Assembly (NCBI GenBank): GCA_964512625.1
Contig: CAZEKG010000003.1
Location: 22,953 to 86,952 of the forward strand
Length of the DNA: 64,000 bases
Origin: an uncultured Gammaproteobacteria bacterium
GTDB taxonomy: Bacteria > Patescibacteriota > Patescibacteriia > 2-01-FULL-39-33
Reading direction: 5' to 3'
The translations under genes and the position numbers were made by a program. The notes below the pieces were generated by a model that did not search any database, was not told the DNA's origin, and worked only from the letters and a program-made list of their open reading frames with translations. Below are positions 7,607-55,535 of this stretch, in pieces; the first letter of the stretch is position 1, and every line of letters starts with the position of its first letter.

Positions 7607-7618
7607 TTACATTCTCAT

Positions 7619-8456: not shown

Positions 8457-8485
8457 TTGACTGGCCAGCCTCATTATGGTAAGAT
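8457..8485 (+). promoter_or_regulatory. candidate promoter TTGACT-N17-TAAGAT with ~210-nt leader for rny
   Basis: -35 perfect, -10 4/6; inside a divergent intergenic region. Confidence 0.4.
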
Positions 8486-10227: not shown

Positions 10228-10235
10228 TTTAGTAT

Positions 10236-11033: not shown

Positions 11034-11068
11034 TTATATAGTGCAGCAAGATAATAACCATTAACTAT

Positions 11069-11353: not shown

Positions 11354-11362
11354 ATATTAAAT

Positions 11363-11401
11363 AATCCCGCTTTCTTAGTAACAAGAAAGCGGGATTTTTT
11401 T
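11363..11401 (+). terminator. rho-independent terminator of hup
   Basis: AATCCCGCTTTCTT...AAGAAAGCGGGATT hairpin followed by a T-run. Confidence 0.8.
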
Positions 11402-11420
11402 ATCATATTAAAATTAAAAG

Positions 11421-11444
11421 GCTCAAGTCGGTTGACTTGAGCCT
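11421..11444 (-). terminator. terminator hairpin for GC-rich ORFan 1
   Basis: GGCTCAAGTC-GGTT-GACTTGAGCC followed (minus strand) by a T-rich run. Confidence 0.55.
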
Positions 11445-11451
11445 TGTGTTT

Positions 11452-12105: not shown

Positions 12106-12274
12106 CACAGATCCTCCTGTTGCGGCGACGGTTTCTTTACAAACTCGCTTTAGCCGCGAAGACCTCTCTTTTGCAATCCCAACGCAGGATTACAGCCGGT
12201 TAACAGCGGATTGATTCAAATTACTTTGAGCCACTCAGCTGTTAATCGGTTAATTTAAAAGAACTTTACTTATG

Positions 12275-12303
12275 ATAATAGCAGTTTTGTTGTTTTTTGT
12301 CAA
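12275..12303 (-). promoter_or_regulatory. consensus promoter TTGACA-N17-TATTAT driving ORFan 1 through a ~150-nt leader
   Basis: Reverse complement of 12298-12303 is TTGACA, exact 17-nt spacer, reverse complement of 12275-12280 is TATTAT. Confidence 0.6.
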
Positions 12304-12490
12304 GGAGTAGGGGGGGCGCATAAATAAAATAATCCGCTGAAGAGTTGGGTATTTCCTCTCTCGATTGGCGCCGGAATGCGCCAATCTCGCTCGTCCTGGG
12401 TCAGCGTCGAATGACTCCCTTTGGTCGCATCCGCCGACACTCGCTTATTCGCAAAATTTTCCAATTTTGCTCATAGCTCGTTTCTGACCC

Positions 12491-12536
12491 GCGCACAAAT
12501 AAAAAATACCCCTGAGGGTATTTTTTATTTGTGCGC
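12491..12536. repeat. 46-nt perfect palindrome abutting the tRNA-Arg 3' end (probable bidirectional terminator)
   Basis: GCGCACAAATAAAAAATACCC-CTGA-GGGTATTTTTTATTTGTGCGC; its last 5 nt overlap the tRNA-Arg acceptor 3' strand. Confidence 0.6.
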
Positions 12537-12605
12537 CCAGCAGGATTCGAACCCACAACCTTCTGGTCCGAAGCCAGACGCTCTATCCAGCTGAGCTATA
12601 GGCGC
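12532..12605 (-). tRNA. tRNA-Arg (UCG)
   Basis: Acceptor GCGCCTA/TGGGCGC, anticodon stem TCTGG/CCAGA with loop CTTCGGA, T-loop TTCGAAT, discriminator A. Confidence 0.8.
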
Positions 12606-12625
12606 ATTTTTTCATTTATTTTTTG

Positions 12626-12698
12626 TGCCCTCAGTAGGATTCGAACCTACGACCGTTTGCTTAAGAGGCAACTGCTCTACCGACTGAGCTATGGACGC
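12626..12698 (-). tRNA. tRNA-Lys (CUU), acceptor stem with two mismatches
   Basis: D-arm GCTC-AGTCGGTA-GAGC, anticodon stem GTTGC/GCAAA with loop CTCTTAA, T-arm GTAGG-TTCGAAT-CCTAC. Acceptor GCGTCCA vs TGAGGGC gives G3-G70 and C5-A68 mispairs. Confidence 0.55.
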
Positions 12699-12708
12699 TA
12701 ATTTTACA

Positions 12709-12731
12709 AAGTCGCCTAGAAAAGGCGACTT
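12709..12731 (-). terminator. terminator of pilT
   Basis: GTCGCCTAGAAAAGGCGAC hairpin followed by T-run on the minus strand. Confidence 0.55.
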
Positions 12732-12767
12732 TGATATATTAGCAATTTTTTTAAAAAATATCAAGAC

Positions 12768-13793
12768 CTAGGCCGTCAAATTAAGATTATAATCAAGGAC
12801 TTCTTTAGTAATCTTATTATCCTTATATAACTGCATGAGCGAATTATCCATAGTAATCATACCTTCTCTAGCTCCAGTTTGAATAGCGGTTTTGATTTGA
12901 GTAACTTTGTTTTCCCTAATCAAATTGGAGATGGCTGGATTATTGATTAAGATTTCTCTAGCCCCGACTCGTCCGCCGTCTTTTCCTGGTACTAATCTTT
13001 GGGACATGACGGCTTGAAGGGTGATGGAAATCTGCATCCTGATTTGATTTTGCTGATGAGGAGGGAAAGTATCAATAATACGATCAATGGTTTGAGAGGC
13101 GCTATAAGTATGTAAAGTCGCAAAGACTAAATGGCCTGTTTCAGCGAGGGTGATTGTTGTAGCAATTGTTTCTAAGTTTCTCATTTCTCCGACCATGATG
13201 ATATTAGGGTCTTGGCGAAGGACATGGACTAAGCCGTTTTGGAAAGTCAACATATCATAGCCGAGCTGTCTTTGGCGGATGATACTTTTTTCCGGCTTGA
13301 AGATAAATTCAATCGGATCTTCAAGAGTCATGATATTGACTCGGCGATTTTGATTGATGTAATTAATCATGGCGGCCAGAGTCGTTGATTTACCGCAACC
13401 GGTCGGACCAGTAACAAGAATCAAGCCTCGATCCAGTTTACATAGATCATAAGCGACTTGAGGCATGCCGATTTCTTCCATGGTCGGGATAATCGAGGGG
13501 ATTATTCTCGCAGCTAGTCCGATATTACCTTTTTCCCAAAATAAATTGATACGGAAGCGGTAGTTCTCGATTTCATGGGCGAAGTCCAGTTCTTTTTCAA
13601 TTAAGAATTTTTTAAACTGTAATTCGCTTAAGACGGCTTTGACGACATTCTCAATATCTTTCGGAGAAAAGACCTTGTTATCAAGCTCGACCAATTCGCC
13701 GTCAACTCTAACGAAAGCCGGCAAGCCGGCAATTAAATGAAAGTCGGAGGCTCTCATTTTTATGGCCCTTTCGAAAAGGCTGTCTAAATTCAT
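12768..13793 (-). CDS. pilT: type IV pilus retraction ATPase PilT
   Basis: Walker A GPTGCGKSTT, LILVTG, PilT/PilU family length (341 aa) and motif order. Confidence 0.85.
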   Translation of the reverse strand: MNLDSLFERAIKMRASDFHLIAGLPAFVRVDGELVELDNKVFSPKDIENVVKAVLSELQFKKFLIEKELDFAHEIENYRFRINLFWEKGNIGLAARIIPSIIPTMEEIGMPQVAYDLCKLDRGLILVTGPTGCGKSTTLAAMINYINQNRRVNIMTLEDPIEFIFKPEKSIIRQRQLGYDMLTFQNGLVHVLRQDPNIIMVGEMRNLETIATTITLAETGHLVFATLHTYSASQTIDRIIDTFPPHQQNQIRMQISITLQAVMSQRLVPGKDGGRVGAREILINNPAISNLIRENKVTQIKTAIQTGAREGMITMDNSLMQLYKDNKITKEVLDYNLNLTA

Positions 13794-13849
13794 ATGATAT
13801 TTTTTAAATTAAGACTGTTTTATGCCCCGAAAATTCCTAAACTTTTAAG

Positions 13850-14554
13850 TTATTTATTCCAATTCTTCTTTTCTAAACCGTTCTTAGCGGCTTCCGTTTG
13901 GGCTTCTTGCTTACTTAATCCTTCGCCGGTCGCGATTAGTTCGTTTTCAAGATAGACGCCGACTTTGAAAGTCTTGGCGTGATCGGGACCGATGGAGCTG
14001 ATTACTTTATAATTAGGAGTGATACCTAAAGCTTCCTGGGCTTTTTCCTGGAAGAGACTTTTAGCGTCAATGTATGATTTATTCATTAAGATTTCTTCGA
14101 GCTCGGAAACGATATGCTTCATGATAAAATCCTTGGCTTTAGCGATACCTAAATCAAGATAAATAGCGCCGATGATCGCTTCAATGGAGTTGGCGAGAAT
14201 GTATTGCCTAGCCTTGGAATTGCCGTCCTTGGATTCGCCCTTGCTTAAATAAAGGAAAGGTTCGACGCCGATTTCCTGAGCGATCTTTGCTAGGTTCGAG
14301 CCGTTAACTAAGCTAGCGCGCCAATTAGTCAATTCACCTTCAGGGTTCGGGTATTTTTTATAAAGATGCTCGGTTACGATCAGTTCTAAAACGGCATCGC
14401 CTAAAAATTCCAGTCTTTCGTTATGATCTAATTTGAATTCAGGATGTTCGTTGAGGTAAGAACGATGGACAACGGCTTGAGTTAAGAGGGTAGGGTTATT
14501 AAAATTAACGCCAATCTTTTTTTCTAATTGAGAGATGTCGGAAATGCGATTCAT
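13850..14554 (-). CDS. rnc: ribonuclease III
   Basis: ERLEFLGDAVLELIV signature plus C-terminal dsRBD. Confidence 0.9.
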   Translation of the reverse strand: MNRISDISQLEKKIGVNFNNPTLLTQAVVHRSYLNEHPEFKLDHNERLEFLGDAVLELIVTEHLYKKYPNPEGELTNWRASLVNGSNLAKIAQEIGVEPFLYLSKGESKDGNSKARQYILANSIEAIIGAIYLDLGIAKAKDFIMKHIVSELEEILMNKSYIDAKSLFQEKAQEALGITPNYKVISSIGPDHAKTFKVGVYLENELIATGEGLSKQEAQTEAAKNGLEKKNWNK

Positions 14555-14556
14555 GA

Positions 14557-15036
14557 TTATTCAGCTTTTATTTCTTCAGTGACGACGGTCGTCTGCTTTT
14601 CGGCGATTCTTTTATCAATTTCTTTTTCACCGCCGTCTTTATAAATAGCGCCTAAAACGCCGTTGACGAACTTGCCCGATGATTCGCCGCCAAAAGTTTT
14701 TGCCAATTCGATTGATTCGTTTATAGCAACTTTAGCCGGGATATTCTCATCAAAACGGAGCTCGAAGGTTCCGAGTCTTAAGATATTGCGGTCAATAGTT
14801 GTTATTTGGTCCAAAGGCCATTCCGGAGCGAATTTTACGATTAACTGGTCGATAGATTCTTTATTTTCCAAGACGCCGTTAATCAGATGCTCGATAAAAC
14901 CGGCATCGTCGAAGTCGGGCGCGAATTGCTCTTTATCCCGCTTCATGATTTCGATGGCATTGTCCACTTGACCGTTAAAATCCCATTGATAAAGAGCTTG
15001 GACGACGATAGTTCTCGCAAGATGTCGATTAGACAT
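14557..15036 (-). CDS. nusB: transcription antitermination factor NusB
   Basis: [14 protein letters not shown]...; 159 aa in the NusB family. Confidence 0.85.
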
Positions 15037-15114
15037 AGTTATTGTGGATTTAGAGTTGCTTCGTTGATAAGCCAGTCATCATGAATGACAACTGACATGG
15101 CAAAAAAACAATTT

Positions 15115-15381
15115 TTATTTAGTGGCTTTCTTTTTCTTAGTAGCGGCTTTTTCTTTTGTTGCCGTTTTTCTAGCCTGTTCTTTTTGTTTTAAGGTTTTAG
15201 CCTTGGTTTTAATCTCGATGACTTGGCGGCCCTTGTAAGTACCGCAGAAATCACAAGCTTTATGAGGAGCAACCGGTTTTTGGCATTTTGAGCATGTATT
15301 CAAAACTGCTTTCTTAAGGGCAAAATGGGAGGCTCTTCTTTTAGCAGAGGACTTCGTTCTCTTTTGGCTGGGTAAACCCAT
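15115..15381 (-). CDS. rpmF: 50S ribosomal protein L32 with Lys-rich C-terminal extension
   Basis: KRRTSKS..RRASHFALK and CSKC...CDFCGYYKGRQV zinc-ribbon are typical of bL32; a Lys-rich tail follows. Confidence 0.8.
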   Translation of the reverse strand: MGLPSQKRTKSSAKRRASHFALKKAVLNTCSKCQKPVAPHKACDFCGTYKGRQVIEIKTKAKTLKQKEQARKTATKEKAATKKKKATK

Positions 15382-16942: not shown

Positions 16943-17926
16943 TTATTTTTCTTTCAGGGTTTTTAAGAAGGCTCCTAATTTTTCGGGCAGTTCACTAGCA
17001 TAGGTTTTTTCTTCTCCGGAGGGGTCAATAAAGGTTAATTGCCGAGCATGGAGAAAAATACGCTCTGGCAGGCCATTTTTGGCCTTAGAAGGCCCATACA
17101 GACGGTCAGAAACGACAGGATGGCCGTAAGCGAGCATATGGACGCGGATTTGATGGGTTCGGCCGGTCAGGATTTGGACCTCTAAAAGGGTATAGTTTTT
17201 TAATCTTTTCAGGACATGGAAAATCGTTAAAGCCGGCTTGGCCTGAGGATTCATTTCCATTTTACTTATCGCCGCAAAAAGTCCCGGCTTGGTTTTCGAG
17301 CGGGAGATCGGGAAGTTTATTTCGCCTTCGCCGGCAATAACTTCGCCTTCGACTAAAGTCCAATATTTTTTAATGATGGTTTTAGTTTTGAAAAGACGTT
17401 TGAAGTAATCGAACGCTTCCTGATTTCTAGGAATAAGGATTAACCCGGAGACATCCTTATCAAGTCGATGGACAATAGCTGGACGAGAAGGATCTTCGCC
17501 GATTTTTCTCAGTTCCGGATATTTTTCTAACAGCCAATCGACTAAAGTATTGGTTTCATTCTTATCGGTCGGATGGACGAGTAGTCCGGAGGGCTTGTTA
17601 AGGATCAAGTAATCTTTTTCTTCGGCGATTATTTCCGGAATAAGGGTAACGGTATTTTTCCTCGCCGTTTTTTTTGATTTTTTCTGATTCTCGGCGTTTG
17701 ATTTACTTTTTGTTTCTTCAGACTTCTCGATTATTATGATCTCATCGCCGTTTTTTAAAAAGCGGTGGACGCTCGCTTCCTTATTATTGACCTTAACGAG
17801 TCCGTCGAGAATCATTTTCTTGATTTGGGAGCGGGTAATTTCCGGTAAGTTTTCGGAAAGGAAAATATCCAGCCTCATTTTTCCTTCGGCTTCCTGATTG
17901 TCGTAGACAAATTTATTTTTTTGCAT
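16943..17926 (-). CDS. rluD: RluA-family 23S rRNA pseudouridine synthase (RluD-like) with S4 domain
   Basis: N-terminal S4 RNA-binding domain; HRLDKDVSGLILI catalytic motif of the RluA family. Confidence 0.85.
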   Translation of the reverse strand: MQKNKFVYDNQEAEGKMRLDIFLSENLPEITRSQIKKMILDGLVKVNNKEASVHRFLKNGDEIIIIEKSEETKSKSNAENQKKSKKTARKNTVTLIPEIIAEEKDYLILNKPSGLLVHPTDKNETNTLVDWLLEKYPELRKIGEDPSRPAIVHRLDKDVSGLILIPRNQEAFDYFKRLFKTKTIIKKYWTLVEGEVIAGEGEINFPISRSKTKPGLFAAISKMEMNPQAKPALTIFHVLKRLKNYTLLEVQILTGRTHQIRVHMLAYGHPVVSDRLYGPSKAKNGLPERIFLHARQLTFIDPSGEEKTYASELPEKLGAFLKTLKEK

Positions 17927-20373: not shown

Positions 20374-20433
20374 TTAAATTTATAGACCAAAGAAATTATA
20401 TGCTTAATAAGGTCTTTTGTCAATCGATCCAAG

Positions 20434-20506
20434 TAGGCCTGGGTGGAATTGAACCACCGACATCTACGTTATAAGCGTAGCGCTCTAACCCCTGAGCTAC
20501 AGGCCC
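20434..20506 (-). tRNA. tRNA with anticodon UAU (putative tRNA-Ile reading AUA)
   Basis: Perfect acceptor GGGCCTG/CAGGCCT, anticodon stem CTACG/CGTAG, loop CTTATAA giving anticodon UAU, T-arm GGTGG-TTCAATT-CCACC. Confidence 0.7.
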
Positions 20507-42449: not shown

Positions 42450-42473
42450 AATTATAAAAAAGAGATATATAAA

Positions 42474-42500
42474 AATCCCCGTTGAGAGGGGATTTTTATT
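42474..42500 (+). terminator. terminator of the ABC exporter operon
   Basis: AAAATCCCCGTTGAGAGGGGATTTTT hairpin followed by a T-run. Confidence 0.7.
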
Positions 42501-42812
42501 TTTGGGTCAGGCACTGTCGGGTCTTATAACAGTGCTCGAGGATAAAGAGTATATGGTTACTTTACGGGAAAAAATGAATAATATCAAGAAAGTTGCCAAG
42601 TTTTACAATTACGACCTCCTGCTAGCCAAAAAGTAAAACGTTATTGCCCCTTGTCTGCCCTTGGGGCGAGCTTTGTACCCCGGGTAGACCTTTGACACCT
42701 CCTGCGACATAGCCCACCGGTTTGACGAATTTTGAAAGCTTGGGACGATTTGCTTAACTTCGGAAAAGTTAAGCAAATATGACTCCGCTAGACTTGTTCT
42801 CCGGGCGAGCGT

Positions 42813-43136
42813 ATGTTCTTGCTTGCTATGGAAGACGATGACATTGAGGCGATCCTTCGGGACGCTAAAAACATAAGAATGCCACATCGACGCGGATCAT
42901 TTAATCCGTTATCTTCACTTCCGGAACCTAAAGCCAAGATCAAACAAGCGATTAAAGAACGAATCAGACTCTTGGCTGGTGCTTATATCTCGCTCGCTGG
43001 ATTTGTTGATGATGACGATATCAGGTTTGCCGAGGATAATCCAAAGTCAAAGAAAACTCGAGCAATATATCTCAAAGTGCTCGAGGACATGGAAATAGCA
43101 AAGAAAGAGATGCGGGAGTTCAAACTGTTAAATTAA
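42813..43136 (+). CDS. hypothetical protein (GC-rich segment at the left edge of the defense/mobile island)
   Basis: 107-aa ORF in a ~500-nt GC-rich patch; weak RBS; converges on the STAND gene with a 33-nt gap. Confidence 0.3.
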   Translation: MFLLAMEDDDIEAILRDAKNIRMPHRRGSFNPLSSLPEPKAKIKQAIKERIRLLAGAYISLAGFVDDDDIRFAEDNPKSKKTRAIYLKVLEDMEIAKKEMREFKLLN

Positions 43137-43169
43137 ATACCCCTTAGTTTAATCGTAATTTGTTTCTTT

Positions 43170-46100
43170 CTAAATTATATTTTCCCTCAAAATATATCCA
43201 ACAACAGAGCCTTTTACTATTAAGAAATCTAGTACCACCAAAACCTCGTCTTTCAATTTTTTGGTTTCTCTTATTTTTGTGCGGTTTTTATAAATATACT
43301 TTCTGATCAGATTTTCAATATAGAAAAGAGTATTGACTTCAAGCTTAACAGTAAGCAGATTTTGATTTTTTACCAGCATATCTGACACCCAGAGTACGCC
43401 ATCATCCATATAATTACTTCCGATATCGTTCAGTAGTTTTGAAATTGCGTAAAGGGTTGAGGCACATTGTCCTATACTCTCTGAAATTTCTTTAAAAAAA
43501 ATTTTATCGTCATCTCTGAACGTATGCCATTCGGTAGCAGATTCCTTCCACGGATTTTGAGCAAAAAGATAGCTTTTAATAATTTTATCAACGTACCAAT
43601 ATCCATCTCCCTTTTTGCAAACCTCAACTATCTTCTCCTTAAACATTCTCCAGACTTCCCAAAATACCTCATACGAATTTAAGTAATCCTCAGCAGATAT
43701 AAATTCTTCAAAGAGATTAGCGATTGCCTCTGAACTATTAAATTTATCCAGAAATGGTTTAAGATATTCTCGAATTTCTTCTTTTGGAGAACTTAAGACG
43801 AAATAGGCTAATTTTTCTAGAAAACCATGCCTGACCTCATAATCAACCCTGTCTTCTCTGTCGCTTGAAATTAATTTTTCGGCAAAAGCAGAAATAATTT
43901 TTTTGACTATTATTTTATGTTCTTCATTTTTTGTTTTTAGAGGAACTAATTGGAAAGCTGTTTTTAATGTATGCAAATCTACCTGCTCAATATTTCCTAC
44001 ATCACTGATTAATAATTGATTGTTTTGGATTTTCTCTAAATAAGCCTTGTTTTCTTTCAAGAACTTTTTCATTACATCACCGTCTTTTATATCGTACTGA
44101 TTCTTTTTATATTTTTCTTGGCGTATCTTTTCTCTCAGGCCATCAAATTTTGGTTTCAATAATAGATAACCCAATAATACTGACTGGGTATCATCAAAGT
44201 TGGTGCCCCATAGTTTATGAATGGCTGTAATTGAAAATGCGTTAAAACTTGTACCAGCCATATCAATTGGGTAATAGTTGAACAAGTTAAACAACAAAAT
44301 TTCTTTTATTTTTGCTTTTTCTTTTGGAAATTTCTCAAATAGAAGTGGTAATACCGAGATTGCAGATTGTGCACCATCGATTGTCTGATATCGGTAATTG
44401 GGTCCAGAAGACAAAGACACTACTTCTAAAACGATTCGGTTGCAAAACTCAGCTTCTTCTTTTGAAAGCTTTTCAAAAAAATCTCTAATCATGACAGAAC
44501 AAACTTCTACTGGGATAGAATTATTTAAAAGATAGAAACCTTCTTCTTCAGAATGCTGAAGTTTAAAAGACTCGGGTTTCTTTGATGCTTTTAATTTTGC
44601 AAGGATTTCTTCGGCTTCTTTAAGCGCAAGGCTTGGGTTGTCTTCATACTGTTTGTACTGCTTATATTTTTCATCATTTACGAACCTAAAATTTGCCCAT
44701 AATTTTAATTGCAGGTATTTAGAAGATTCGGAATTCTTTTCTAAAGATTTTTCACTGTACTCTTTTAATTCCGGATCAATTTGAGGATTAAAATTAATCA
44801 AATATCCATCGTCAGTTTTTTCTGAGACAAGATTCATCTTCCTTCTATCCATTCTTGCCAAATAAAGTCTCCAGGTTTTATCCTGTTCTGTCTCCGCTGA
44901 TGGATTGGGTAATTTTTTATAGTAATCATCCAAAATTTCCCATAATACCCGTTGTCTGTTTTTTGACTCTTCTTCGTTTAAACCCTCGTTTCGAAATAAT
45001 TGGTAATTTAAAAATAGATTTTCTAAAGACAATTTTCTGTGCTTATCATCACAAGCCTGTAGTCTTTCTGACTCATGAAATTCATTCTTTGAGTTACCAC
45101 CAAATGCTTTTAGTGATAAAAGCATACTCTTGTGCCCTTGGTCTAAAACCAACCTACTCGTATCGTAAAGGAAAAAGTTTTTCGTTTTAAAAAGAATTTT
45201 AGCGATATTAAAGGTCTTTTCAGGATATGCCAAAACAATGCTTGCTATTATGCCTGAGATAGAAGCTGATTTTGAATTTCTGAGAAGATACAAGAGCCAG
45301 CTTTCCAAGGTCTCTGAATTGGCAACCTTCCCATTTTCAAGAAAAAACTTTTCTAAAGCCATATGAATGGATTCTAGAACATGGGGAGAAGTTTGCGTTC
45401 CTCTGAATGTACACCAAAGTCTACAACTTATGTATTGCTTTATTGATTTATCTTTTTCAATAATAACTTCAACTTCTTCGACTTCGTATTTAGCAAATTC
45501 GGACTTAGCAAAATATTCGACTGTTTTATTTGTAAATTTTAATATGAAGTCTATTGTTTCTTGAAGCGAGGATTGAAGAAGCCAGTAAATCGGAGTCTGA
45601 TATGAACTGGCTGGGAAATAATCCAAATGGTCGTCTTCCATGTCAAAATACTCTTCTACTCCCATCCCCGAACGGGTATGGAAATGATCTTTAGGGGGCG
45701 TAAAAGACCAAAAAAGATCGGCTATTTGCAAAACATATTTTGGAAGGATCTTGGCAATTGTTGCACCTTCGAATTTAGTCAAAATAATTTCAGACAAATC
45801 ATGATATGGATCCCTATGGTTTTTCCACTTATTTTTTACGACTTCTTTAAAAATCTCCTCTAACTCATTTTTAATTTCAGCAGAGCTATAAATAATAGTT
45901 TGTAAGAGATTATTTTTTGTATCATCATCGGAAATATAAACATCTTTTTCTATAGTCCATTGATAGTATTTTAGTGCCATTAAGCCGGAATATTTTGTCG
46001 TTTCTCCCTCTTTAAATTTACTAGTCCAGTCGTGGATTATCGGTAAGATAAAATGGATATTTTGAATACCAACTTGATCAAAATTATCAAAAACAAATTT

Positions 46101-47975
46101 AATAAGGCATTTCCACCCCTGTCCTTTCGGTCTCGTTAAAATGTATTTGAGAGAAAAGATATTTAAATTTTGAACTCCTAATTGTTTGAAAAAGTCATCG
46201 TCAACTTCCTTACAAGCAATCCTTAAAAGGAAAAATATTCTATGTAATAAGCTTTCTTCGTATTTATAGTTGACGGTTAGAGATTGTACGACTTTGGATG
46301 AATTGTCGTACTTAACTACTTTTTCAGGTACACTTAGCAATTCATTTTTAAACAATTCAAAGAAAACAGAGGAGAAATCGGAAAGTAAAACCGAGACCAA
46401 TATTTCATCTTTCCAAAAAGATTTTATATCTTTATCCTTAATAGTTTGTTCGATAAAACTTTTGATCTCACTATTTTGTAACAACAACTTTTCCGATACC
46501 CATTTCCTGAAAGCACGACGCAAAGGCAAAGAGCTGCCTAGATTTTGAAAAAAAGTTTTATTGTCAGTCTTTTTCCCGAATTCAATCTCAATATTTTTCT
46601 CAAGTGCCCACTCCTCATAGATATCATGAGTGATGAAATATCCGTGAGGTGACTCATATCCTAAAATCCCGTCCTTCTTTAGCTCGTTATCTAGAATCCC
46701 TGATTCACAATCTGTATTAATAAAGAATTGTCCATCAGTTGCTCTCTGCAATGCCATTTTTAAAAAGCATTGTTCTCTCGCGGGTTTAGATTTAATGATT
46801 ATCTTATTCCACAGTTTGTCTTTAAAATCAGTATAGTTTATTTGTTCACCGTCCTTGTAGTATTTCAAATATTCGTTTAAGTAAAATGGATTTTTAATAA
46901 GGTCTACTAATTTTTCATCGTTGGGGAGAGAAAAATGATATATTTCAGAAAGTTTACTTAGTTCTTTTGCTTCTAAATTTTGTAAATTGATGTTTAAAGG
47001 GGCAATTTTATAAATCTCAAAAAACTGATAATTTAAATCTTCTAGATAATTATCTCTTGTTGTAAAAATAACTTTCCAATTTTCCTTAACCGCTATAGAT
47101 AAAAACTCCTTAAAGGGATCGGGGTTTTTTAAATCCAACAGTTTTTCTGCGGAATCAATTACGATAATTTTATCGCCATCATTTTTATGCCCATCTAGAA
47201 AATTCTGAAAACTGTATCCTGTAAAAAATTCGCTTATATTTCTCAGCTCAAATTCGGTTGCCTTAAAAATATAGAAGGGCATCTTACCTTTTGTTTCTTC
47301 ATAGAAGTCTTTGATGGTCGCTGTCTTTCCAACCCCACCAACACCACTTAAAATTAAAACTTTTTCTGGGCTGACCTTTATTTTTTCCAAGTCGCCACTT
47401 CTGTCTATTTTAATATTTTGACCATTAAAGATTATGGCCGTTTGTATCTCATTTAAAATATTTTCTGAATGTTCCTGTTGATTTTTTATGAGGTCAAATA
47501 TACTTTTGTCTAAACTAAAAAAATGTTTAGCTATTATTTCATTATCAACAGAAACAAAATTTGATTCAAAAAAACTAGCAGTTCTCCATTCTAATTTGAT
47601 ATTAAGTGTATTCGCCTTGCTTTCTATGTCTTTTTTCCCTTGAGGTTCTTTGCCTTTATTTTGTCCCCACTCCTCATTGGTATACAAGATTAATTTCGTA
47701 ATATTTATATAATCTCTCTTTGTCTTTTCAAGGATATTGATTAATTCAGTTGAGTGATTTGATAATGATGTACTATAAAATTTAGCCTGCCAACCTATTA
47801 CTTCTTCTTTTTCTTGAATAGGATCTGTTTCTATGGCAGATTGATTTTTATAACGAAAAATCCCAGTTGTTTTATTAAACTCTCTACAAAACAACGAATA
47901 GCAAAACCACTCAAAGTTATTTTGAGGATTTTCGCTAAATTTTGCTCTAAAGATGTCCCATGATGGCTTAATCAT
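43170..47975 (-). CDS. NB-ARC/STAND NTPase, 1601 aa: N-terminal putative nuclease-like effector + P-loop NTPase + ~1100-aa helical C-terminal region (Avs/bacterial-NLR-like antiphage candidate)
   Basis: Walker A GVGGVGKT (aa 211-218), Walker B KIIVIDSAE (aa ~270), RNBS-B-like VIFTTRD (aa 302-308), GLPL-like NPFYL. N-terminus has E22...D51...Q63-A-K65, reminiscent of PD-(D/E)xK. Last gene of an RM operon, 5-nt gap to the upstream gene. Confidence 0.7.
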   Translation of the reverse strand: MIKPSWDIFRAKFSENPQNNFEWFCYSLFCREFNKTTGIFRYKNQSAIETDPIQEKEEVIGWQAKFYSTSLSNHSTELINILEKTKRDYINITKLILYTNEEWGQNKGKEPQGKKDIESKANTLNIKLEWRTASFFESNFVSVDNEIIAKHFFSLDKSIFDLIKNQQEHSENILNEIQTAIIFNGQNIKIDRSGDLEKIKVSPEKVLILSGVGGVGKTATIKDFYEETKGKMPFYIFKATEFELRNISEFFTGYSFQNFLDGHKNDGDKIIVIDSAEKLLDLKNPDPFKEFLSIAVKENWKVIFTTRDNYLEDLNYQFFEIYKIAPLNINLQNLEAKELSKLSEIYHFSLPNDEKLVDLIKNPFYLNEYLKYYKDGEQINYTDFKDKLWNKIIIKSKPAREQCFLKMALQRATDGQFFINTDCESGILDNELKKDGILGYESPHGYFITHDIYEEWALEKNIEIEFGKKTDNKTFFQNLGSSLPLRRAFRKWVSEKLLLQNSEIKSFIEQTIKDKDIKSFWKDEILVSVLLSDFSSVFFELFKNELLSVPEKVVKYDNSSKVVQSLTVNYKYEESLLHRIFFLLRIACKEVDDDFFKQLGVQNLNIFSLKYILTRPKGQGWKCLIKFVFDNFDQVGIQNIHFILPIIHDWTSKFKEGETTKYSGLMALKYYQWTIEKDVYISDDDTKNNLLQTIIYSSAEIKNELEEIFKEVVKNKWKNHRDPYHDLSEIILTKFEGATIAKILPKYVLQIADLFWSFTPPKDHFHTRSGMGVEEYFDMEDDHLDYFPASSYQTPIYWLLQSSLQETIDFILKFTNKTVEYFAKSEFAKYEVEEVEVIIEKDKSIKQYISCRLWCTFRGTQTSPHVLESIHMALEKFFLENGKVANSETLESWLLYLLRNSKSASISGIIASIVLAYPEKTFNIAKILFKTKNFFLYDTSRLVLDQGHKSMLLSLKAFGGNSKNEFHESERLQACDDKHRKLSLENLFLNYQLFRNEGLNEEESKNRQRVLWEILDDYYKKLPNPSAETEQDKTWRLYLARMDRRKMNLVSEKTDDGYLINFNPQIDPELKEYSEKSLEKNSESSKYLQLKLWANFRFVNDEKYKQYKQYEDNPSLALKEAEEILAKLKASKKPESFKLQHSEEEGFYLLNNSIPVEVCSVMIRDFFEKLSKEEAEFCNRIVLEVVSLSSGPNYRYQTIDGAQSAISVLPLLFEKFPKEKAKIKEILLFNLFNYYPIDMAGTSFNAFSITAIHKLWGTNFDDTQSVLLGYLLLKPKFDGLREKIRQEKYKKNQYDIKDGDVMKKFLKENKAYLEKIQNNQLLISDVGNIEQVDLHTLKTAFQLVPLKTKNEEHKIIVKKIISAFAEKLISSDREDRVDYEVRHGFLEKLAYFVLSSPKEEIREYLKPFLDKFNSSEAIANLFEEFISAEDYLNSYEVFWEVWRMFKEKIVEVCKKGDGYWYVDKIIKSYLFAQNPWKESATEWHTFRDDDKIFFKEISESIGQCASTLYAISKLLNDIGSNYMDDGVLWVSDMLVKNQNLLTVKLEVNTLFYIENLIRKYIYKNRTKIRETKKLKDEVLVVLDFLIVKGSVVGYILRENII

Positions 47976-47980
47976 CGTAA

Positions 47981-48745
47981 TTACTTTATTTTTTGAAATA
48001 CAAAAAGGTGCTCGTGCATTATTAATAAAAAGTTAGCGGCCTTAGACTTATCTACCCAGAAACCTGTCGCCTTGCAGTTAAACTGTCTCTTAATTATGTC
48101 CTCCTTTAAAAGAAAGCCTGCTTTCAAGAAACGGTCCATAACCTTATAAGCTAGTGGCTGATACATCTTATTTCGTCTGGTATCTCCCATTAAAATAGAA
48201 CAAAATTTGCCGGGCTTCAAAACCCTAAAAAATTCCTTAGCAACCTTTTCCATTTCATCACAAAAAGCTTCGATGTCGTGGATATTTGATAAATCATCAA
48301 CCAGCTTGCCCTCGCTGTATTTGATGATATCTACATACGGAGGATGAGTAAGAACAAAATCAACGGTATTGTCTTTTATTTTCTCAAGATTGCGAGAATC
48401 CCATTTAAAGCCTCTTTGCCAGCTTTTATTCTCAACTTTAAAATCCAAACATTTCTTTGTCCGGTCCAAAGCTTCTTGATTTACATCAGAGTAAACAATA
48501 TTCCTATTGAGAATTTTTGCTTCGATTGCGGTCGTGCCACCACCAATCATAGAATCGAGCAAAATATCACCTTCCTTTGAATATCGCAAAATGAGATTTC
48601 GAGCCACTTCAGGCGACCAATTTCCTCTCCAATCTGAAGTATGTGTTGCCCAATTACCTCGGCGAGGAAAAGCCCAAACCGTGGTACATTCTAGCTCGAA
48701 GTCATCAGGATGTAATTTTATTTCTGTATCCTTTTTCGTTGTCAT
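47981..48745 (-). CDS. SAM-dependent DNA methyltransferase (N6-adenine/N4-cytosine type; motif I GGGTT before motif IV HPPY)
   Basis: ILLDSMIGGGTT (motif I) ~75 aa before LTHPPYVD (motif IV). Third gene of the M-R-M cassette, analogous in position to M.MboC/DpnA. Confidence 0.7.
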   Translation of the reverse strand: MTTKKDTEIKLHPDDFELECTTVWAFPRRGNWATHTSDWRGNWSPEVARNLILRYSKEGDILLDSMIGGGTTAIEAKILNRNIVYSDVNQEALDRTKKCLDFKVENKSWQRGFKWDSRNLEKIKDNTVDFVLTHPPYVDIIKYSEGKLVDDLSNIHDIEAFCDEMEKVAKEFFRVLKPGKFCSILMGDTRRNKMYQPLAYKVMDRFLKAGFLLKEDIIKRQFNCKATGFWVDKSKAANFLLIMHEHLFVFQKIK

Positions 48746-48751
48746 AATGAG

Positions 48752-49609
48752 TTACCATGTTAGTTTGTCCAAGGCACCAGCCTCGAGCATGTTCAAATTA
48801 AAAACATACTCATTATGGTTATAAGTTTCTTCAAGAGGTCTCTTCGTTGTGTTCCAACCCAAGCCATCAGTTATCCAAATGAAGTCGATATTTTGTTCTT
48901 TAAGTTCGCTATACAAACTTTTGAATTCACCGCATACGGCTTTTAGCTTTGATCCGCCACCATTATAAAAATTGGTTTCAAATAATTTAATCTTTTTATT
49001 TTTAGGGTTATATACGGCGAAATCAAAACTTCTTTCTGATTTATCTATTTTTACATCCACGCCCCACTTACTTTTTATATTAGTGGCACGAGCCTGTGCC
49101 ATGTATTCAAACCCGTTTTTATTACAAAAATCACTGATGAATGTTCCAACAATTTCTTCCATCAAAGAACCGCCCCGGTTCTTTCGGCCATTACTATCAA
49201 GACCGACTTCAACTCCCATAACATAATCGACTAAGTTTTTAACGCCGTCTTTTTTGAATAAACGAGCGAGACCAGATTTATCTAAAAATTCATAATATTT
49301 CTCTGAATCTTGTTCCTTACCTGAAAAATCAAAGAAGTCTGAGTTCTTAGTAACCTTATCAAATACCTCAAGCTTGTTTTCTCTGACCGCCAAAAGCACG
49401 GGCAAAGCCTTAACAATGTCTGGGTTAGAGCTATAGAGTTTCTTAAATTCGCCCTCGAGGTCATCTTTACCAAGAAGATAATTGAGTTTATTAAGAGCAA
49501 TTTCTAAATCCGAGCTGTTTGAAAAAACCTTCTTCCAGTTTACGAAATAATCCCAAGTCTTAATTGAGCTTTTAAAGGTAGCTATTAGGTTATTAAAATC
49601 TTTTTGCAT
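48752..49609 (-). CDS. type II restriction endonuclease, DpnII/MboI family (GATC)
   Basis: NLVDYVMGVEVGLDSNGRKNRGG, FDFAVYN...TNFYNGGGSKL, FIWITDGLGW closely track the R.DpnII family sequence as I recall it. Confidence 0.8.
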   Translation of the reverse strand: MQKDFNNLIATFKSSIKTWDYFVNWKKVFSNSSDLEIALNKLNYLLGKDDLEGEFKKLYSSNPDIVKALPVLLAVRENKLEVFDKVTKNSDFFDFSGKEQDSEKYYEFLDKSGLARLFKKDGVKNLVDYVMGVEVGLDSNGRKNRGGSLMEEIVGTFISDFCNKNGFEYMAQARATNIKSKWGVDVKIDKSERSFDFAVYNPKNKKIKLFETNFYNGGGSKLKAVCGEFKSLYSELKEQNIDFIWITDGLGWNTTKRPLEETYNHNEYVFNLNMLEAGALDKLTW

Positions 49610-49616
49610 ATTATAT

Positions 49617-50573
49617 TTAGTAATTAGTTATTAAGACTTCCGTGACTTTTCCTCTTCCTGAACCATTGGAATTAATGGCTCGGCCAGCCTGAACCTTATT
49701 AATGCGTACCCCTTTAATTCCAGAATATATTTTATTGATGAATGGAGTGTCAGAATTTGAAAGCATAACGAAACAACCTCTTTTATTTAACTCAACAAGA
49801 GTATTACGAAGTTCTGTCTGCTCTTTATCCAAAAATGATTCAGCCGTGTACGAAGTAAAAGAAGCAGTCTTACTAACTGGGTAATATGGTGGATCAAAAT
49901 AAATAAAGTCACCCTTTTTTGCTTTTTTAAGAACTTCTTTATAATCCTGATGTTTTATATCAATATTCTGAAGTGCCTTTGATACCTTTCGCAAATTATC
50001 TTCATCGCAAATAAGAGGATTGGTATATTTACCAAACGGCACATTAAATCCTCCCTTACTATTTACCCGATACATTCCATTAAAACAGGTGCGATTGAGG
50101 AATATAAAACGAGAAGCTACTGCAACATCGCTTAGCTTGTTTGGGTCCTGAGCACGAACTTCCAAAAAGTAGTCCTTATCGGTTTTGTGCTTCTTAAGTG
50201 AAACGATTAATTTTTCAAGGTCATTTTTTATGACATTATATGTGACAACAAGTTCTTTGTTTAAATCAGAGAGAAACCCTTCTTCTGGGAGAAGATCAAA
50301 GAATACCGCACCACCACCGACAAACGGTTCAAAGTACCTGCTTTTCTTAGGATCAAAGTTTTCTGGTGGATAAAGATTCATCCTTCTGAATTGAGCGAGA
50401 AGTTGTCGCTTGCCACCAACCCATTTAACAAACGGCTTCGGCTTCTCTGCAATGATGCGTGCCGAATCATCGAGTAGGTTTGTTTTATCAGCAAGAGAAA
50501 AAACTCTGCGAGCAAAAATCGCATTTATATCGAAAGTTTTTTGAATAGTTAGAATTGATTGTTTTGTTGTCAT
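49617..50573 (-). CDS. Dam-family (D12 class) N6-adenine DNA methyltransferase, GATC-type
   Basis: KWVGGKRQLL, FEPFVGGGAVFFDL (motif I), DFIYFDPPYYPVS (motif IV), and overall colinearity with M.DpnII/Dam. Confidence 0.85.
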   Translation of the reverse strand: MTTKQSILTIQKTFDINAIFARRVFSLADKTNLLDDSARIIAEKPKPFVKWVGGKRQLLAQFRRMNLYPPENFDPKKSRYFEPFVGGGAVFFDLLPEEGFLSDLNKELVVTYNVIKNDLEKLIVSLKKHKTDKDYFLEVRAQDPNKLSDVAVASRFIFLNRTCFNGMYRVNSKGGFNVPFGKYTNPLICDEDNLRKVSKALQNIDIKHQDYKEVLKKAKKGDFIYFDPPYYPVSKTASFTSYTAESFLDKEQTELRNTLVELNKRGCFVMLSNSDTPFINKIYSGIKGVRINKVQAGRAINSNGSGRGKVTEVLITNY

Positions 50574-50581
50574 AAATCTTT

Positions 50582-50782
50582 TTACTTTTTATTTGACTTA
50601 CCAGAAATGTTGCTGGTATTTTCCAAAAACTTTTGCAAATCCACTTCCGTTATTCTCCAACTTCCAATTTTTGATGCCTTTAGTTTCCCAGAGTCAATAT
50701 AACGGTTTATAGAGCGACAACTAACTCTTAATATTTTGGCGGTTTCCTCGATAGTGAAGAGTTTATCAATTTTGGTAGTCAT
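50582..50782 (-). CDS. excisionase-family (AlpA/Xis-like, MerR-superfamily) HTH protein, first gene of the RM-STAND operon
   Basis: 66 aa, IEETAKILRVSCRSINRYIDSGKLKASKIGSWRI is the typical excisionase-family HTH; 8-nt gap to the Dam gene. Confidence 0.6.
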   Translation of the reverse strand: MTTKIDKLFTIEETAKILRVSCRSINRYIDSGKLKASKIGSWRITEVDLQKFLENTSNISGKSNKK

Positions 50783-51015
50783 AAAAGATTTCTTTGCTTA
50801 TAAGTTTATACTTACATTTTACCGCTTACGGATTTCATTGTCAAAAGTGGCAGATTTTGTCATAATACACTTGTAAGCTTTGTTAATCGGATATAATCAA
50901 CTACATACGATTATATTCATAAGTATCCGAAAGTTAGTGAATGGGAGGCATAAAATGGGCCCGATTCACTAAAAAGCTAACTGGAAGTAAGGATTAAGCT
51001 TATATCCAGTAAAAA

Positions 51016-51696
51016 ATGAGTATGAAAATGAAAAAGGCCTCCATGGCCACTAAATACAAATTTAATATAAGAAAAGCGGTGGAATTTGCATCGACCTATC
51101 GGTTATCTATTGCCACCACTGAAAAGATTTTGCGATCTTCAATGAAGTCTGCTGGCATAGCTGATGGCGATCAGATTATAAAGCACAACCAACCGGCGAT
51201 CGGACTTCTTACCAAAGAAATCATTGAGACGAAACTCGAAGTAAAAGGTATCCGGTCCCTCTTGGAACGCCGAACCAGTAAATTTGAGGGGCTGACCGAA
51301 TATGATCAGCAATTTATAAAAACATTTGCTCGGGAGGCGGCGATTTCTTTTGCTGAATATTTTGCAAAGAGCACAAATACTCCAGCCGGCAAGACCATCG
51401 TATACATCTCATCCGACTGCGAACTGTATCGTGAGCCAAAGAGTCAGTATTGTTTTAGAATGGAAGCCCCGAGTAAAAGAATGAAGCTAATCACCGCAAT
51501 GATGGCCACCAAAAAATACATACCGACCCAAACATTGGCTGACATCACTGGATTGGCAAGCATTAAATCGGTTCAAAGTGCGGTCCAAGCAATAAGGCGA
51601 TCCGCAGAAAAGAAACTTGGGCTCTTAAAATTTATCGACGGCTGGCAGGATTCCGGGTACCGCATCAATCCAAACATAATGTTGAAAAAAGAATAA
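51016..51696 (+). CDS. putative winged-helix (OmpR/CadC-type C-terminal) DNA-binding protein
   Basis: C-terminus TQTLADITGLASIKSVQSAVQAIRRSAEKKLG...GYRIN resembles the trans_reg_C winged helix. Confidence 0.4.
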   Translation: MSMKMKKASMATKYKFNIRKAVEFASTYRLSIATTEKILRSSMKSAGIADGDQIIKHNQPAIGLLTKEIIETKLEVKGIRSLLERRTSKFEGLTEYDQQFIKTFAREAAISFAEYFAKSTNTPAGKTIVYISSDCELYREPKSQYCFRMEAPSKRMKLITAMMATKKYIPTQTLADITGLASIKSVQSAVQAIRRSAEKKLGLLKFIDGWQDSGYRINPNIMLKKE

Positions 51697-51839
51697 AGCT
51701 CGTAAGGTACTCTTAAGACCCCTGTTAATAACTTTTTACAAAAGCGACCAAAGCGGTCGTTTTTTTGTTTTGAAAATTCAATCAAAGAGTATGTAAAGAG
51801 GCGCAACTCGATTGGTATAAAGAATATGCAAACATCTTT

Positions 51840-52022
51840 ATGCCGAAGCCAATAATCACAAAGAAAATACCGCCTCTCACCCCAGCTCAAATGGAGGAAA
51901 TTTTCATGGACAGATTAGCCGATCTGATTGTCCGACTTTTGGATTATCGCTACGAGCAAAAAGAGAAAGAAAAACAATCTAATAATCAAAATGAATATGA
52001 AAAACCAAACACCAGACAATAA
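51840..52022 (+). CDS. small hypothetical protein (60 aa)
   Basis: ATG ORF with protein-like helical composition; overlaps the next gene by ~30 nt in another frame. Confidence 0.3.
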   Translation: MPKPIITKKIPPLTPAQMEEIFMDRLADLIVRLLDYRYEQKEKEKQSNNQNEYEKPNTRQ

Positions 52023-52254
52023 TTTTATTACCAGCGACTTCTACACGGCCTGTCTGCTCTTGGCCAACGACTATCACCTTGTCGGCATAAACAAGACCGA
52101 CAGCCGACGCTTCCGCTTTATCTTCACTGATGAACCGGATCGGGTCCAAATCGTTGCCGGATACTTTGACGGCCTAACGAGCGTTAACACTCGCAAGTTT
52201 GTAAACGCCATTAAAGAGCTGAAGTCGCTCATGTATAACGACGCGATCAGTTGA
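51991..52254 (+). CDS. small island-associated protein (DUF5659-like by memory)
   Basis: MNMKNQTPDNNFITSDFYTACLLLANDYHLVGINKTDSRRFRFIFTDEPDRVQIVAGYFDG; start placed at the internal ATG because the upstream part is Lys-rich junk. Confidence 0.35.
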   Translation: MNMKNQTPDNNFITSDFYTACLLLANDYHLVGINKTDSRRFRFIFTDEPDRVQIVAGYFDGLTSVNTRKFVNAIKELKSLMYNDAIS

Positions 52255-52273
52255 AAATAATCAAATATGAAAT

Positions 52274-53050
52274 ATGGAAAATTTGCCATTCGAAATAGAT
52301 AACAATGATTACGTAAAGCTTCCACGAAGCATCAAAACCGCCCTTGTGGACGGCTATTTGAGTTTTGAGGAATACTCGGTCCTCGTCTGGCTGTGGATCA
52401 CTGCCAACCCACGAATGGGTAAAGCACACGTAAGTTATGCCGGGCTGTCCAAGGACTTCAAAGAAAAGTATTCCAAGAATCACATCAATCGACTAATGCT
52501 GAACTTGAAGCATAAGAAGTGGGTATGGTTTGCTGGACAGCAAGGTCGCAGAAGTTCGTTCCATGTTGATATCGCCAATTACCCCTTATCAAATGGTGGT
52601 TTTGTCAACATTGAAGTACGACAGAAACAGAAGTTCGGCAGAAGTGAGGATGATATTACAGAGCATTCACCAGCAGAAGTGCCGACAGAAGTTAGCGACG
52701 TTCAGCAGAAGTTGAAAGACGACAAAAACGCTTTAGTGGATAGGTTTTCTTTCAATTCTGAAAGTTCGCTCGGCAGAAGTTCCAAGAACGATAACGAAAA
52801 AGAAAATAAAAACAACCGATCGAATCGTGGTCGACAGCCGGTAAGAGAATTCTCTCCCAAGTCTTACGAGGAACAAAAATGCTGTGAGATCGCCCAAGAG
52901 CTGGGAGAAAAGGATATGACCTTCATCCTATCGGCTCTGAAAAGGTACGGACTGACGAGAATTGAGGAAGCTTACCGGTCTGTAATGGATCAACCGAGCG
53001 ATAAGGTTAAAAACAGGGGTGCATACTTTAATCGTTTGCTAAATCTTTAA
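52274..53050 (+). CDS. putative replication-initiator-like / winged-helix DNA-binding protein
   Basis: N-terminal LSFEEYSVLVWLWITANPRMGKAHVSYAGLSKDF...NHINRLMLNLKHKKWVWF looks like a rep/replisome-organiser winged helix; sits next to iteron-like repeats. Confidence 0.35.
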   Translation: MENLPFEIDNNDYVKLPRSIKTALVDGYLSFEEYSVLVWLWITANPRMGKAHVSYAGLSKDFKEKYSKNHINRLMLNLKHKKWVWFAGQQGRRSSFHVDIANYPLSNGGFVNIEVRQKQKFGRSEDDITEHSPAEVPTEVSDVQQKLKDDKNALVDRFSFNSESSLGRSSKNDNEKENKNNRSNRGRQPVREFSPKSYEEQKCCEIAQELGEKDMTFILSALKRYGLTRIEEAYRSVMDQPSDKVKNRGAYFNRLLNL

Positions 53051-53051
53051 A

Positions 53052-53447
53052 ATGCCCAAGCTTAATTACTTAAGACCAAAACATAAGCGAGCGATTGAGA
53101 TGAGGTGGCAGAGTATTCACTACGATGAAATTGCTAGTGAGGTGGGAGTCACTCTTGATGCGATTAAGTCGTGGTTCAGAGCCAATGGATTTTTGAGAGA
53201 AGCCTACAACCAATACGCCGAGGATCAGATTTTGATCCGAAAACTTCAGGACAAACAGGAAAGAATAAATACACTTAACAGCAACAATCAGCAACAGGAC
53301 GCAACAAATTCGGCTAATTTGCCGGTTTTCAAAGCCTTTCAGAAACTGTCGCCAAAAGATCAAGATGATGTTATGAAAAGATTTAACGAACTAAACAGAG
53401 GGGCCGAAAAGAAAATAAATACACTAAATGGAATTAAACGGAACTAA
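53052..53447 (+). CDS. HTH protein (terminase-small-subunit-like / sigma70 region-4-like N-terminus)
   Basis: LRPKHKRAIEMRWQSIHYDEIASEVGVTLDAIKSWFRANGFLREAYNQY helix-turn-helix pattern; 2 nt after the upstream gene. Confidence 0.35.
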   Translation: MPKLNYLRPKHKRAIEMRWQSIHYDEIASEVGVTLDAIKSWFRANGFLREAYNQYAEDQILIRKLQDKQERINTLNSNNQQQDATNSANLPVFKAFQKLSPKDQDDVMKRFNELNRGAEKKINTLNGIKRN

Positions 53448-53760: not shown

Positions 53761-55461
53761 ATGGAACATGCATTAATTTACTGCCGAGTCTCAACTGAGG
53801 AACAAGCCGAGGACGGCCACCATTCCCTAGCGACTCAGCTCAAGCTCTGCAAGCGAGCGATCGAGGAAAGCAACAAATATAAATTAGCCGAGGACGGCGT
53901 CTTTGAAGACCCGGGCCGATCAGCCACCAATATGAATCGCCCCGGACTGCAAGATATGCTACTGCGAATTCAAGACGACAAAGCGATCAAGGCAGTTTTT
54001 ATTCAAGACACTGACCGACTGGCGAGAAATGCTCTTGATCACATGCAGATCAAGGCAATCATGAAAAAGCATGATGTTGAATTATTTTCTGTCTCCCAGC
54101 CGGGCATTACTGATAGCCCCGAGGGAAACTTTATGGACTTGGTTATTGCCGGTGTGAACCAACTCCAATCACAAATAACCTCCAGAAAGACCCTGAAAAG
54201 CCTTGAACAAAAATTCTGGGAGGGTTGGTGGCCGACTGGTGTGGCCGTTGGATATTTAAATGCTGGCGAACCGGACGATGAGAAAAAGAGAATTATTATT
54301 GTAGACGAAGAACGAGCCCCACTTATTCAAGAGGCATTTAAAATGTATGTGACCGGAGATTATTCAGTCTTTGAAGTTCGTGACGCTTTATACAAAAAAG
54401 GTTTTAGAACTCACGCCGACAAACGACTGGCTCACAGCAAGATGATTGAGATCTTAAAAAATCCTTTTTATTACGGTGAGATGAGGTGGCGAGGATTAGT
54501 TAACACCGGAAAACATAAACCACTTATAGATAAAGATTTGTGGGAACGAGTCCAGCTGGTTATGGCCGAACATAACCGCTATGCCTGCCGACGGCAAAAG
54601 TTTAACTTTATTCTGCGAGGCCTAACCTTTTGTGCCAACTGCGGACAAAGATACACCGCCGAACACCACCCTAAGAAAAATAAATCTTATTACCACTGCA
54701 ACCGGTCCGGAGATCAGATTAAATGCAGTGATAAATACGTGGAAGTTTGGGATATAGAACAGCAGGTCGCTGATTTATTTAAGTACATAGAATTTACTCC
54801 TGATTTTACCGACAGACTGGTGGCCAAAATTGAAAAGATTTACAGCGGTCGCAAAGAAGTGATTAATAAAGATAAGAAAGCCCTGAACACTCAAAAGATG
54901 ATGTTTGAAAAGAAACGAGACACTGCCGAGGAAAAACTATTTGCCGGACTTATCACGGATGACGACTTCTCCAGAGTAAAAGTAAAAATCAAAGAACAGC
55001 TCGAGTTATTGCAAGACGAACTGTACGCTCAAGATAAAAAGCTAAACATGAGAATAGACGAATTGCAGGATATGCTTTTATTCGTCCGCAACGCTTACGA
55101 AGCCTATACCAAATCGCCGGATGAAATGAAGAGATTATTTCTCGGTCTTTATTGGGAGAGGTTTGAAGTAGCCGACAAAAAAATCCAAACCGTAATACCA
55201 TCACCAATCATCAGAGGTCTGATGCAAGCGGAGGATCTAGTCTTTACCAAGAAATACAAGGAGATTGCCGGTCCGAGGATAATAACCGACTTAGCCGTAG
55301 AATTTACACCATTCATAGCTGGTAAATCAAAATCCAAGATTGCCCCTAAAACGCAAAAATCCCGACAAATTGCCGAGATTCCTGCAATGATATCCAATCA
55401 ACCGAACTCGGTTATATTAGATACCGTTTGGGGTGGCTATCGAGAATTGAACTCGAGTTAA
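53761..55461 (+). mobile_element. large serine recombinase (integrase)
   Basis: Resolvase catalytic domain ALIYCRVSTEEQ (Ser nucleophile), recombinase domain, zinc-ribbon CANCGQRY...YYHCNRS, C-terminal coiled-coil; 566 aa. Confidence 0.85.
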
Positions 55462-55535
55462 CGGTACCACAAACCGCTGTGTTAACCACTACACCATAGC
55501 CACCAAATTATTACATCGGCATAGACCGATATTTG

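Follow-up and report, generated by a model that had tools for sequence, protein, structure and literature searches.

A full-length Avs4 anti-phage receptor adjoining a DpnII-type restriction-modification system on a low-GC serine-recombinase island

Results

Gene content of the island

Within the window, by which we mean the whole 64,000-nucleotide stretch that was analysed, an island of about 13 kb stands out by its GC content of 36.8% against 41.6-41.8% in the flanks. The flanking genes are of the housekeeping kind, with ABC transporters to one side and nitroreductase, S15 and PNPase to the other. The giant gene examined here, avs4 (GC 32.1%), is cargo of this mobile, low-GC defence island, the main features of which are the following.

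43170..47975, minus strand: avs4, encoding an AVAST type 4 protein of 1601 aa (PADLOC and NCBIfam models, PDB 8dgf_A alignment)
47981..48745, minus strand: N6_N4 (DpnA-like) DNA methyltransferase, 5 bp upstream of avs4 (Pfam PF01555, E=8.9e-22; PADLOC MTase_II, E=3.8e-84)
48752..49609, minus strand: DpnII-family type II restriction endonuclease (Pfam PF04556, E=1.4e-94; PADLOC REase_II, E=2.2e-98)
49617..50573, minus strand: D12-class (Dam/DpnM-like) N6-adenine methyltransferase (Pfam PF02086, E=1.5e-63; PADLOC MTase_II, E=2.3e-99)
50582..50782, minus strand: 66-aa helix-turn-helix (HTH) ORF, first of the string, 8 bp upstream of the D12 methyltransferase
53761..55461, plus strand: large serine recombinase at the island edge, its 3' end overlapping tRNA-His (Pfam Resolvase, Recombinase, Zn_ribbon_recom)
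55429-55503, minus strand: tRNA-His

The HTH gene is followed by the methyltransferase-endonuclease-methyltransferase (M-R-M) set of a DpnII-type restriction-modification (RM) system and, last, by avs4, all on the minus strand and separated by gaps of 5-8 bp. The original prediction had thus placed the giant gene correctly in an RM gene string, with the D12 methyltransferase, the DpnII endonuclease and the N6_N4 methyltransferase upstream on the same strand. The strongest promoter-like site of the region (50844-50816, 11/12 positions) lies just upstream of the HTH gene, promoter-like sites showing no overall enrichment across the region, and no terminator-like sites were found between the genes of the string. 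The avs4 gene is probably co-transcribed with the DpnII-type RM system. The 66-aa HTH protein may serve the RM-Avs4 string as a controller or as an excisionase-like regulator; its counterpart in metagenome contig L023 carries the annotation PF12728 HTH_17.

The right edge of the island is marked by the recombinase and tRNA-His. Near its left edge, a search for an att-like repeat of the tRNA-His end gave no match longer than 10 nt (E about 0.7), which is within chance expectation, and the left boundary was therefore set by the loss of similarity to L023 and to the Saccharibacteria metagenome-assembled genome (MAG) L001, together with a bidirectional terminator-like hairpin at 42469-42499.

Several smaller genes accompany these elements. 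A 107-aa ORF at 42813-43136 (plus strand), convergent to avs4 and matching nothing in Pfam, PADLOC or NCBIfam, remains the neighbour of avs4 in contigs L023-L026, which are 97% identical, but not in L001. Between the RM system and the recombinase, the interval 51016-53447 (plus strand) holds small island genes partly conserved in L001 and L023: a 226-aa and a 258-aa ORF, both without a match, a DUF5659 protein (51928-52254) and a 131-aa protein weakly matching sigma-70 region 4.

The giant open reading frame and its family

The ORF at 43170..47975 opens with ATG and ends with the stop codon at 43170-43172. Its reality is borne out by shuffling: over 200 shuffles of the avs4 sequence (32% GC) the longest stop-free run reaches 173 codons, against the 1601 observed, so that the frame cannot be attributed to chance.

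Curated family profiles match the protein above threshold and over its full length. The PADLOC Avs4 model PDLC02169 scores 2299.9 bits (E=0), aligning residues 1-1601 with all 1570 positions of the profile (1-1570), and no other PADLOC model, those of other Avs types included, matches the protein. The equivalog NCBIfam model NF041815, 'AVAST type 4 anti-phage nuclease Avs4', scores 2120.9 bits (cutoff 1500). Among PDB sequences the only match is 8dgf_A, 'ATP-binding protein Avs4' (1879 bits, E=0), which aligns in a single colinear stretch, residues 1-1601 against 1-1587. This is the Escherichia coli protein EcAvs4, solved with the portal of phage PhiV-1 (PDB 8DGF). The two proteins, 1601 and 1587 aa long and about 52-56% identical, are colinear throughout; relative to EcAvs4, the protein of the window lacks about 19 residues near residue 117 and carries about 23 extra residues at 549-572. 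Both consist of an Mrr-like nuclease, a STAND NTPase and an alpha-solenoid sensor, and E22, E49, the QxK motif and the Walker residues are common to both.

A search of a collection of 5.8 billion proteins returned at least 1688 homologues, and the best 120 of them are without exception full length, at 58-97% identity, several being named Avs4 at NCBI. An exact-sequence lookup of the protein of the window found no identical record, and the 97%-identical relative P0001 was used in its place; a 97%-identical relative, in an NCBI Paceibacterota MAG, already carries the name Avs4. For a defence protein, conservation in this clade is unusually high, with 58-97% identity over all 1600 residues among these best 120 homologues, the named sources of which include Paceibacterota, Levybacteria, Nitrospirota, Alphaproteobacteria and a Methylococcales symbiont. 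Such conservation across phyla is consistent with frequent horizontal transfer combined with a strongly constrained ligand interface.

Generic domain libraries give a different picture. Pfam, run on the whole protein and on three pieces of it, returned only sub-threshold P-loop matches, and no Mrr_cat, TPR or WD40. The tripartite architecture of Avs4, with an N-terminal nuclease, a STAND NTPase with intact Walker A and B motifs and a long C-terminal repeat sensor, is nevertheless complete, and its parts lie as follows.

47376..47975, minus strand: N-terminal Mrr-like PD-(D/E)xK nuclease effector, residues 1-200
47910-47912, minus strand: motif I, E22
47829-47831, minus strand: likely motif II, E49
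47781-47789, minus strand: motif III, Q63-A-K65
46419..47375, minus strand: central STAND NTPase module, residues about 201-519, aligning with the NTPase of 8DGF
47322-47345, minus strand: Walker A GVGGVGKT, residues 211-218, including K217
47142-47168, minus strand: Walker B IIVIDSAEK
47052-47066, minus strand: FTTRD motif, with R307
43173..46418, minus strand: alpha-solenoid sensor at the C-terminus, residues 520-1601, a homologue of the EcAvs4 domain that binds the portal (AF2 and Foldseek)

The N-terminal nuclease

The original prediction, which left the type of the N-terminal effector unclear, named E22, D51, Q63-A-K65 and K217 of Walker A, and all of these residues are present. It also suggested, cautiously, a PD-(D/E)xK core and called for fold prediction and Foldseek comparison of the first 200 residues. 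The AF2 model of residues 1-200 (pLDDT 84.6, residues 38-44 below 50) displays an alpha-beta-beta-beta-alpha-beta core, and Foldseek aligns it with 8dgf_A at E=2.8e-22 and TMq 0.71. The domain thus has a restriction-endonuclease-like fold, nearest to Mrr-type structures, and with its motifs I and III conserved it is best read as the Mrr-like effector of Avs4. The nuclease suggestion is thereby upheld, even though Pfam records no match to Mrr_cat, nor to any other family, for residues 1-200 at E<=10.

Conservation was counted over the query aligned with its 120 best homologues (n=121). F21 is kept in 120/121 sequences and E22 in 119/121; Q63 is present in 112 of the 121 (E in 8) and K65 in 115 (R in 5). 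The original prediction had regarded the QxK variant as a weakness of the nuclease assignment, whereas Q-x-K is the defining motif III of the Mrr family: in all Mrr-like enzymes the E of this motif is replaced by Q, and a conserved Phe stands beside the Glu of motif I (PMC2790908). Both signatures, Q-x-K in motif III and F-E in motif I, are found here. In these respects, and in its core fold, the domain resembles E. coli Mrr, the nuclease domain of LlaGI/LlaBIII and AF1548.

Motif II departs from the family pattern. Mrr enzymes have D-G-x-x-x-D with an invariant catalytic Asp. The original prediction singled out D51, but that position is D in 43/121 sequences and N in 69/121; EcAvs4 has N there, and since the nuclease of EcAvs4 has been characterised experimentally, D51 cannot be an essential catalytic residue. 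The conserved acid is a Glu rather than an Asp, namely E49 (119/121), which, judging from the alignment, is likely to be the motif II acid, two residues upstream of D51. The loop bearing E49 (residues 38-50) is of low confidence in the monomer model, so that it is conservation, not the model, that places E49 in the active site. Mrr has a further conserved Asp, D199, which is without a clear counterpart here; N44 is conserved instead. Unlike Mrr, the nuclease of Avs4 forms one chain with a STAND NTPase, and oligomerisation, rather than a reader of DNA modification, switches it on. The domain is, in sum, the known Mrr-like effector of Avs4, in keeping with the label 'EcAvs4-Mrr-portal' given to 8DGF (bioRxiv 10.64898/2026.08.25.746987), and the residues worth mutating are E49 or Q63/K65, not D51.

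The STAND NTPase module

The P-loop begins at residue 211, so that about 210 residues precede it and not the 190 or so first estimated. Within the module K217, D274 and E277 are invariant (121/121), and R307 is kept in 120/121 sequences. The original prediction spoke of a STAND/NB-ARC protein, and the first half of that description holds: the module is a STAND-type NTPase, in agreement with the classification of Avs proteins as STAND NTPases (PMC11897194; bioRxiv 10.64898/2026.08.25.746987). The second half does not, in that NB-ARC appears only below threshold in Pfam (14.7 bits, cutoff 23.5) and covers the P-loop alone, so that the protein does not belong to PF00931. The other Pfam matches to this region, AAA_14 (25.4 bits) and nSTAND3 (18.9 bits, cutoff 27.2), are likewise sub-threshold. 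Searches of Pfam, PADLOC, PDB sequences and NCBIfam gave no matches to SNF2, Lhr or AAA helicases.

The C-terminal sensor

The description of the C-terminal region as helix-rich and devoid of TPR or WD40 signatures was accurate. The AF2 model of residues 520-1601 (pLDDT 83.1) is nearly all helix with two beta-hairpins, and Pfam finds no match in this region at E<=10 and no repeat family. The suggestion that the sensor may be a novel repeat type did not survive the structural comparison proposed along with it. Foldseek superposes the sensor model on 8dgf_A with TMq 0.83 and E=4.7e-76, at 52% identity over 1081 columns, while the remaining matches are generic karyopherin/HEAT solenoids with TM about 0.2; on the evidence of the model, the sensor thus corresponds to the EcAvs4 solenoid already described and is no new repeat type. 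The least conserved segments of the sensor are 551-600 (0.44) and 1301-1350 (0.49) (n=121).

Relatives of the island

The Saccharibacteria MAG L001 carries the same island adjoining its own tRNA-His, with 81% DNA identity over window positions 43170-50866 and a recombinase 88% identical in protein sequence to that of the window. In L023 the cargo is closer still, at 94% identity between window positions 42782-51068 and L023 positions 6919-15194, a segment comprising the HTH gene, the M-R-M genes, avs4 and the 107-aa ORF. There, this cargo is joined to an unrelated serine recombinase adjoining tRNA-Asn, and the recombinase modules show no DNA similarity to that of the window. The defence cassette has apparently been swapped between different integrative elements.

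In all three loci the recombinase gene and a convergent tRNA gene overlap at their 3' ends (window 53761-55503, L001 1061-2802, L023 2829-4506), the tRNA being tRNA-His in the window and in L001 and tRNA-Asn in L023. This suggests tRNA-targeted integration, with the att site inside the end of the recombinase gene itself. L001 and L023-L025 also contain the M-R-M-Avs4 string. Among the 22 genome loci found with this Avs4, 21 lack a DpnII RM homologue beside it, and the RM-Avs4 linkage is therefore a trait of this island lineage and not of Avs4 generally.

Discussion

The protein encoded at 43170-47975 is almost certainly orthologous to Avs4, which acts as a single-protein pattern-recognition receptor against phage and belongs to the STAND NTPase class. 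The effector and the sensor, which the original prediction took to be possibly undescribed, are those of an equivalog-level Avs4 that aligns end to end with a cryo-EM structure; the protein thus belongs to a known family, an outcome the prediction itself had listed as counting against it. The locus contributes one further copy of a well-characterised receptor, of a kind that PADLOC and NCBI PGAP name automatically, and the gene, although real, is not new. Pfam detects neither the Mrr-like nuclease of Avs4 nor its portal-binding solenoid, which explains the uncertainty of the first reading. This copy also differs from EcAvs4 in genomic setting, as it lies behind a DpnII RM system on an island with a serine recombinase, outside the enterobacteria.

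What could be the mode of action of this protein? Our own results cover the family to which the protein belongs, the layout of its domains, how the effector and the sensor fold, and which catalytic and NTPase residues are conserved; a portal trigger, assembly into tetramers, the degradation of DNA and the abortion of infection are inferred by carrying over published work on EcAvs4. By homology, Avs4 would be an inactive monomer in the uninfected cell. Upon infection, the alpha-solenoid (residues about 520-1601) would bind the phage portal protein, and portal binding together with ATP held at Walker A and B (K217, D274/E277) would lead to a tetramer. Tetramerisation would pair the N-terminal Mrr-like PD-(D/E)xK domains (E22, E49, Q63-x-K65) into active nuclease dimers, and these might then cut DNA non-specifically and abort the infection. 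In the published work the phage portal activates Avs4, and tetramers join the N-terminal nucleases for DNA binding and hydrolysis (PMC11897194; PMC10952240). Oligomerisation of Avs4 requires ATP but not its hydrolysis (PMC12236752), and Avs3 and Avs4 are both described as phage-activated endonucleases that degrade DNA non-specifically (PMC11564622). The same logic is seen in SeAvs3 (AVAST type 3, PDB 8DGC), likewise a tripartite STAND receptor, in which binding of a conserved phage protein leads to a tetramer with an active N-terminal nuclease. The nuclease of SeAvs3 is Cap4-like and its trigger is the terminase, whereas that of Avs4 is the portal, and neither the Avs3 models nor 8DGC gave a sequence match to the protein of the window.

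The arrangement of the locus invites a broader proposal, in which the HTH gene, the DpnII-type M-R-M genes and avs4 would form one transcription unit that acts as a swappable cassette among the tRNA-targeting serine-recombinase islands of Patescibacteria-like genomes, with one version at tRNA-His and another at tRNA-Asn. Taken as a whole, this proposal is in our judgement rather unlikely to be correct. If co-transcription did reflect functional coupling, the locus would represent a modestly new form of layered defence in bacteria with ultra-small genomes, for example with the RM system as the first line and Avs4 as an abortive backup under a single regulator. The locus is in any event a tidy case of RM and Avs4 stacked on a tRNA-linked serine-recombinase island that is also present in candidate-phyla-radiation MAGs.

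Another possibility concerns the trigger. The protein might be a true Avs4 orthologue of the same function whose sensor has drifted to a non-portal phage protein, or which recognises only the portals found in its own Patescibacteria-like host range. The sensor shares 52% identity with that of EcAvs4, its conservation is lowest in the two segments given above, and Avs families other than Avs4 display trigger diversification (PMC13581612). The range of portals recognised could indeed differ from that of EcAvs4, given an overall identity of only about 52-56%. Against such drift stand the superposition of the sensor over all 1081 columns with a TM of 0.83 and the unusual full-length conservation of the best 120 homologues across phyla, which argues for a conserved ligand. 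We consider a drifted trigger improbable and retain the portal as the expected ligand of this Avs4.

A further reading would have the RM genes and avs4 constitute one obligate multi-gene system, in which the nuclease or the methylases are needed for the function of Avs4, rather than two independent systems on one island. The short gaps of 5-8 bp, the shared strand, the lack of terminator-like sites between the genes and the single strong promoter-like site ahead of the HTH gene would all suit such a system, as would the recurrence of the M-R-M-Avs4 string in L001 and L023-L025. The loci that share the string are, however, close relatives of one island (81-94% DNA identity), so that the recurrence reflects inheritance and not independent association, and Avs4 occurs without an adjoining DpnII RM in 21 of the 22 genome loci. 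By itself EcAvs4 reportedly confers defence, a finding ascribed to Gao et al. in 2022. The literature, moreover, treats Avs4 as a single-protein receptor (PMC11897194; PMC10952240). Obligate dependence of Avs4 on the RM genes is accordingly very improbable. Least credible of all is a novel bacterial NLR with an undescribed effector and/or sensor, which the protein resembles only when viewed through generic libraries, Pfam being blank for residues 1-200 and 520-1601 and sub-threshold at the P-loop, since dedicated models and a solved structure span every residue, both predicted domains superpose on 8DGF, and the name Avs4 is already attached to a 97%-identical protein.

A last observation concerns the translation apparatus. 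The window encodes, at 20433-20506 (minus strand), a tRNA-Ile with the anticodon UAU, and a tRNA of the same kind is found at 17064-17135 of the Vogelbacteria MAG locus L009. Taken with the relatives of the island, it hints at a Patescibacteria-like genome as a possible source of the window. A tRNA-Ile with a UAU anticodon is an uncommon route to the decoding of AUA in bacteria.
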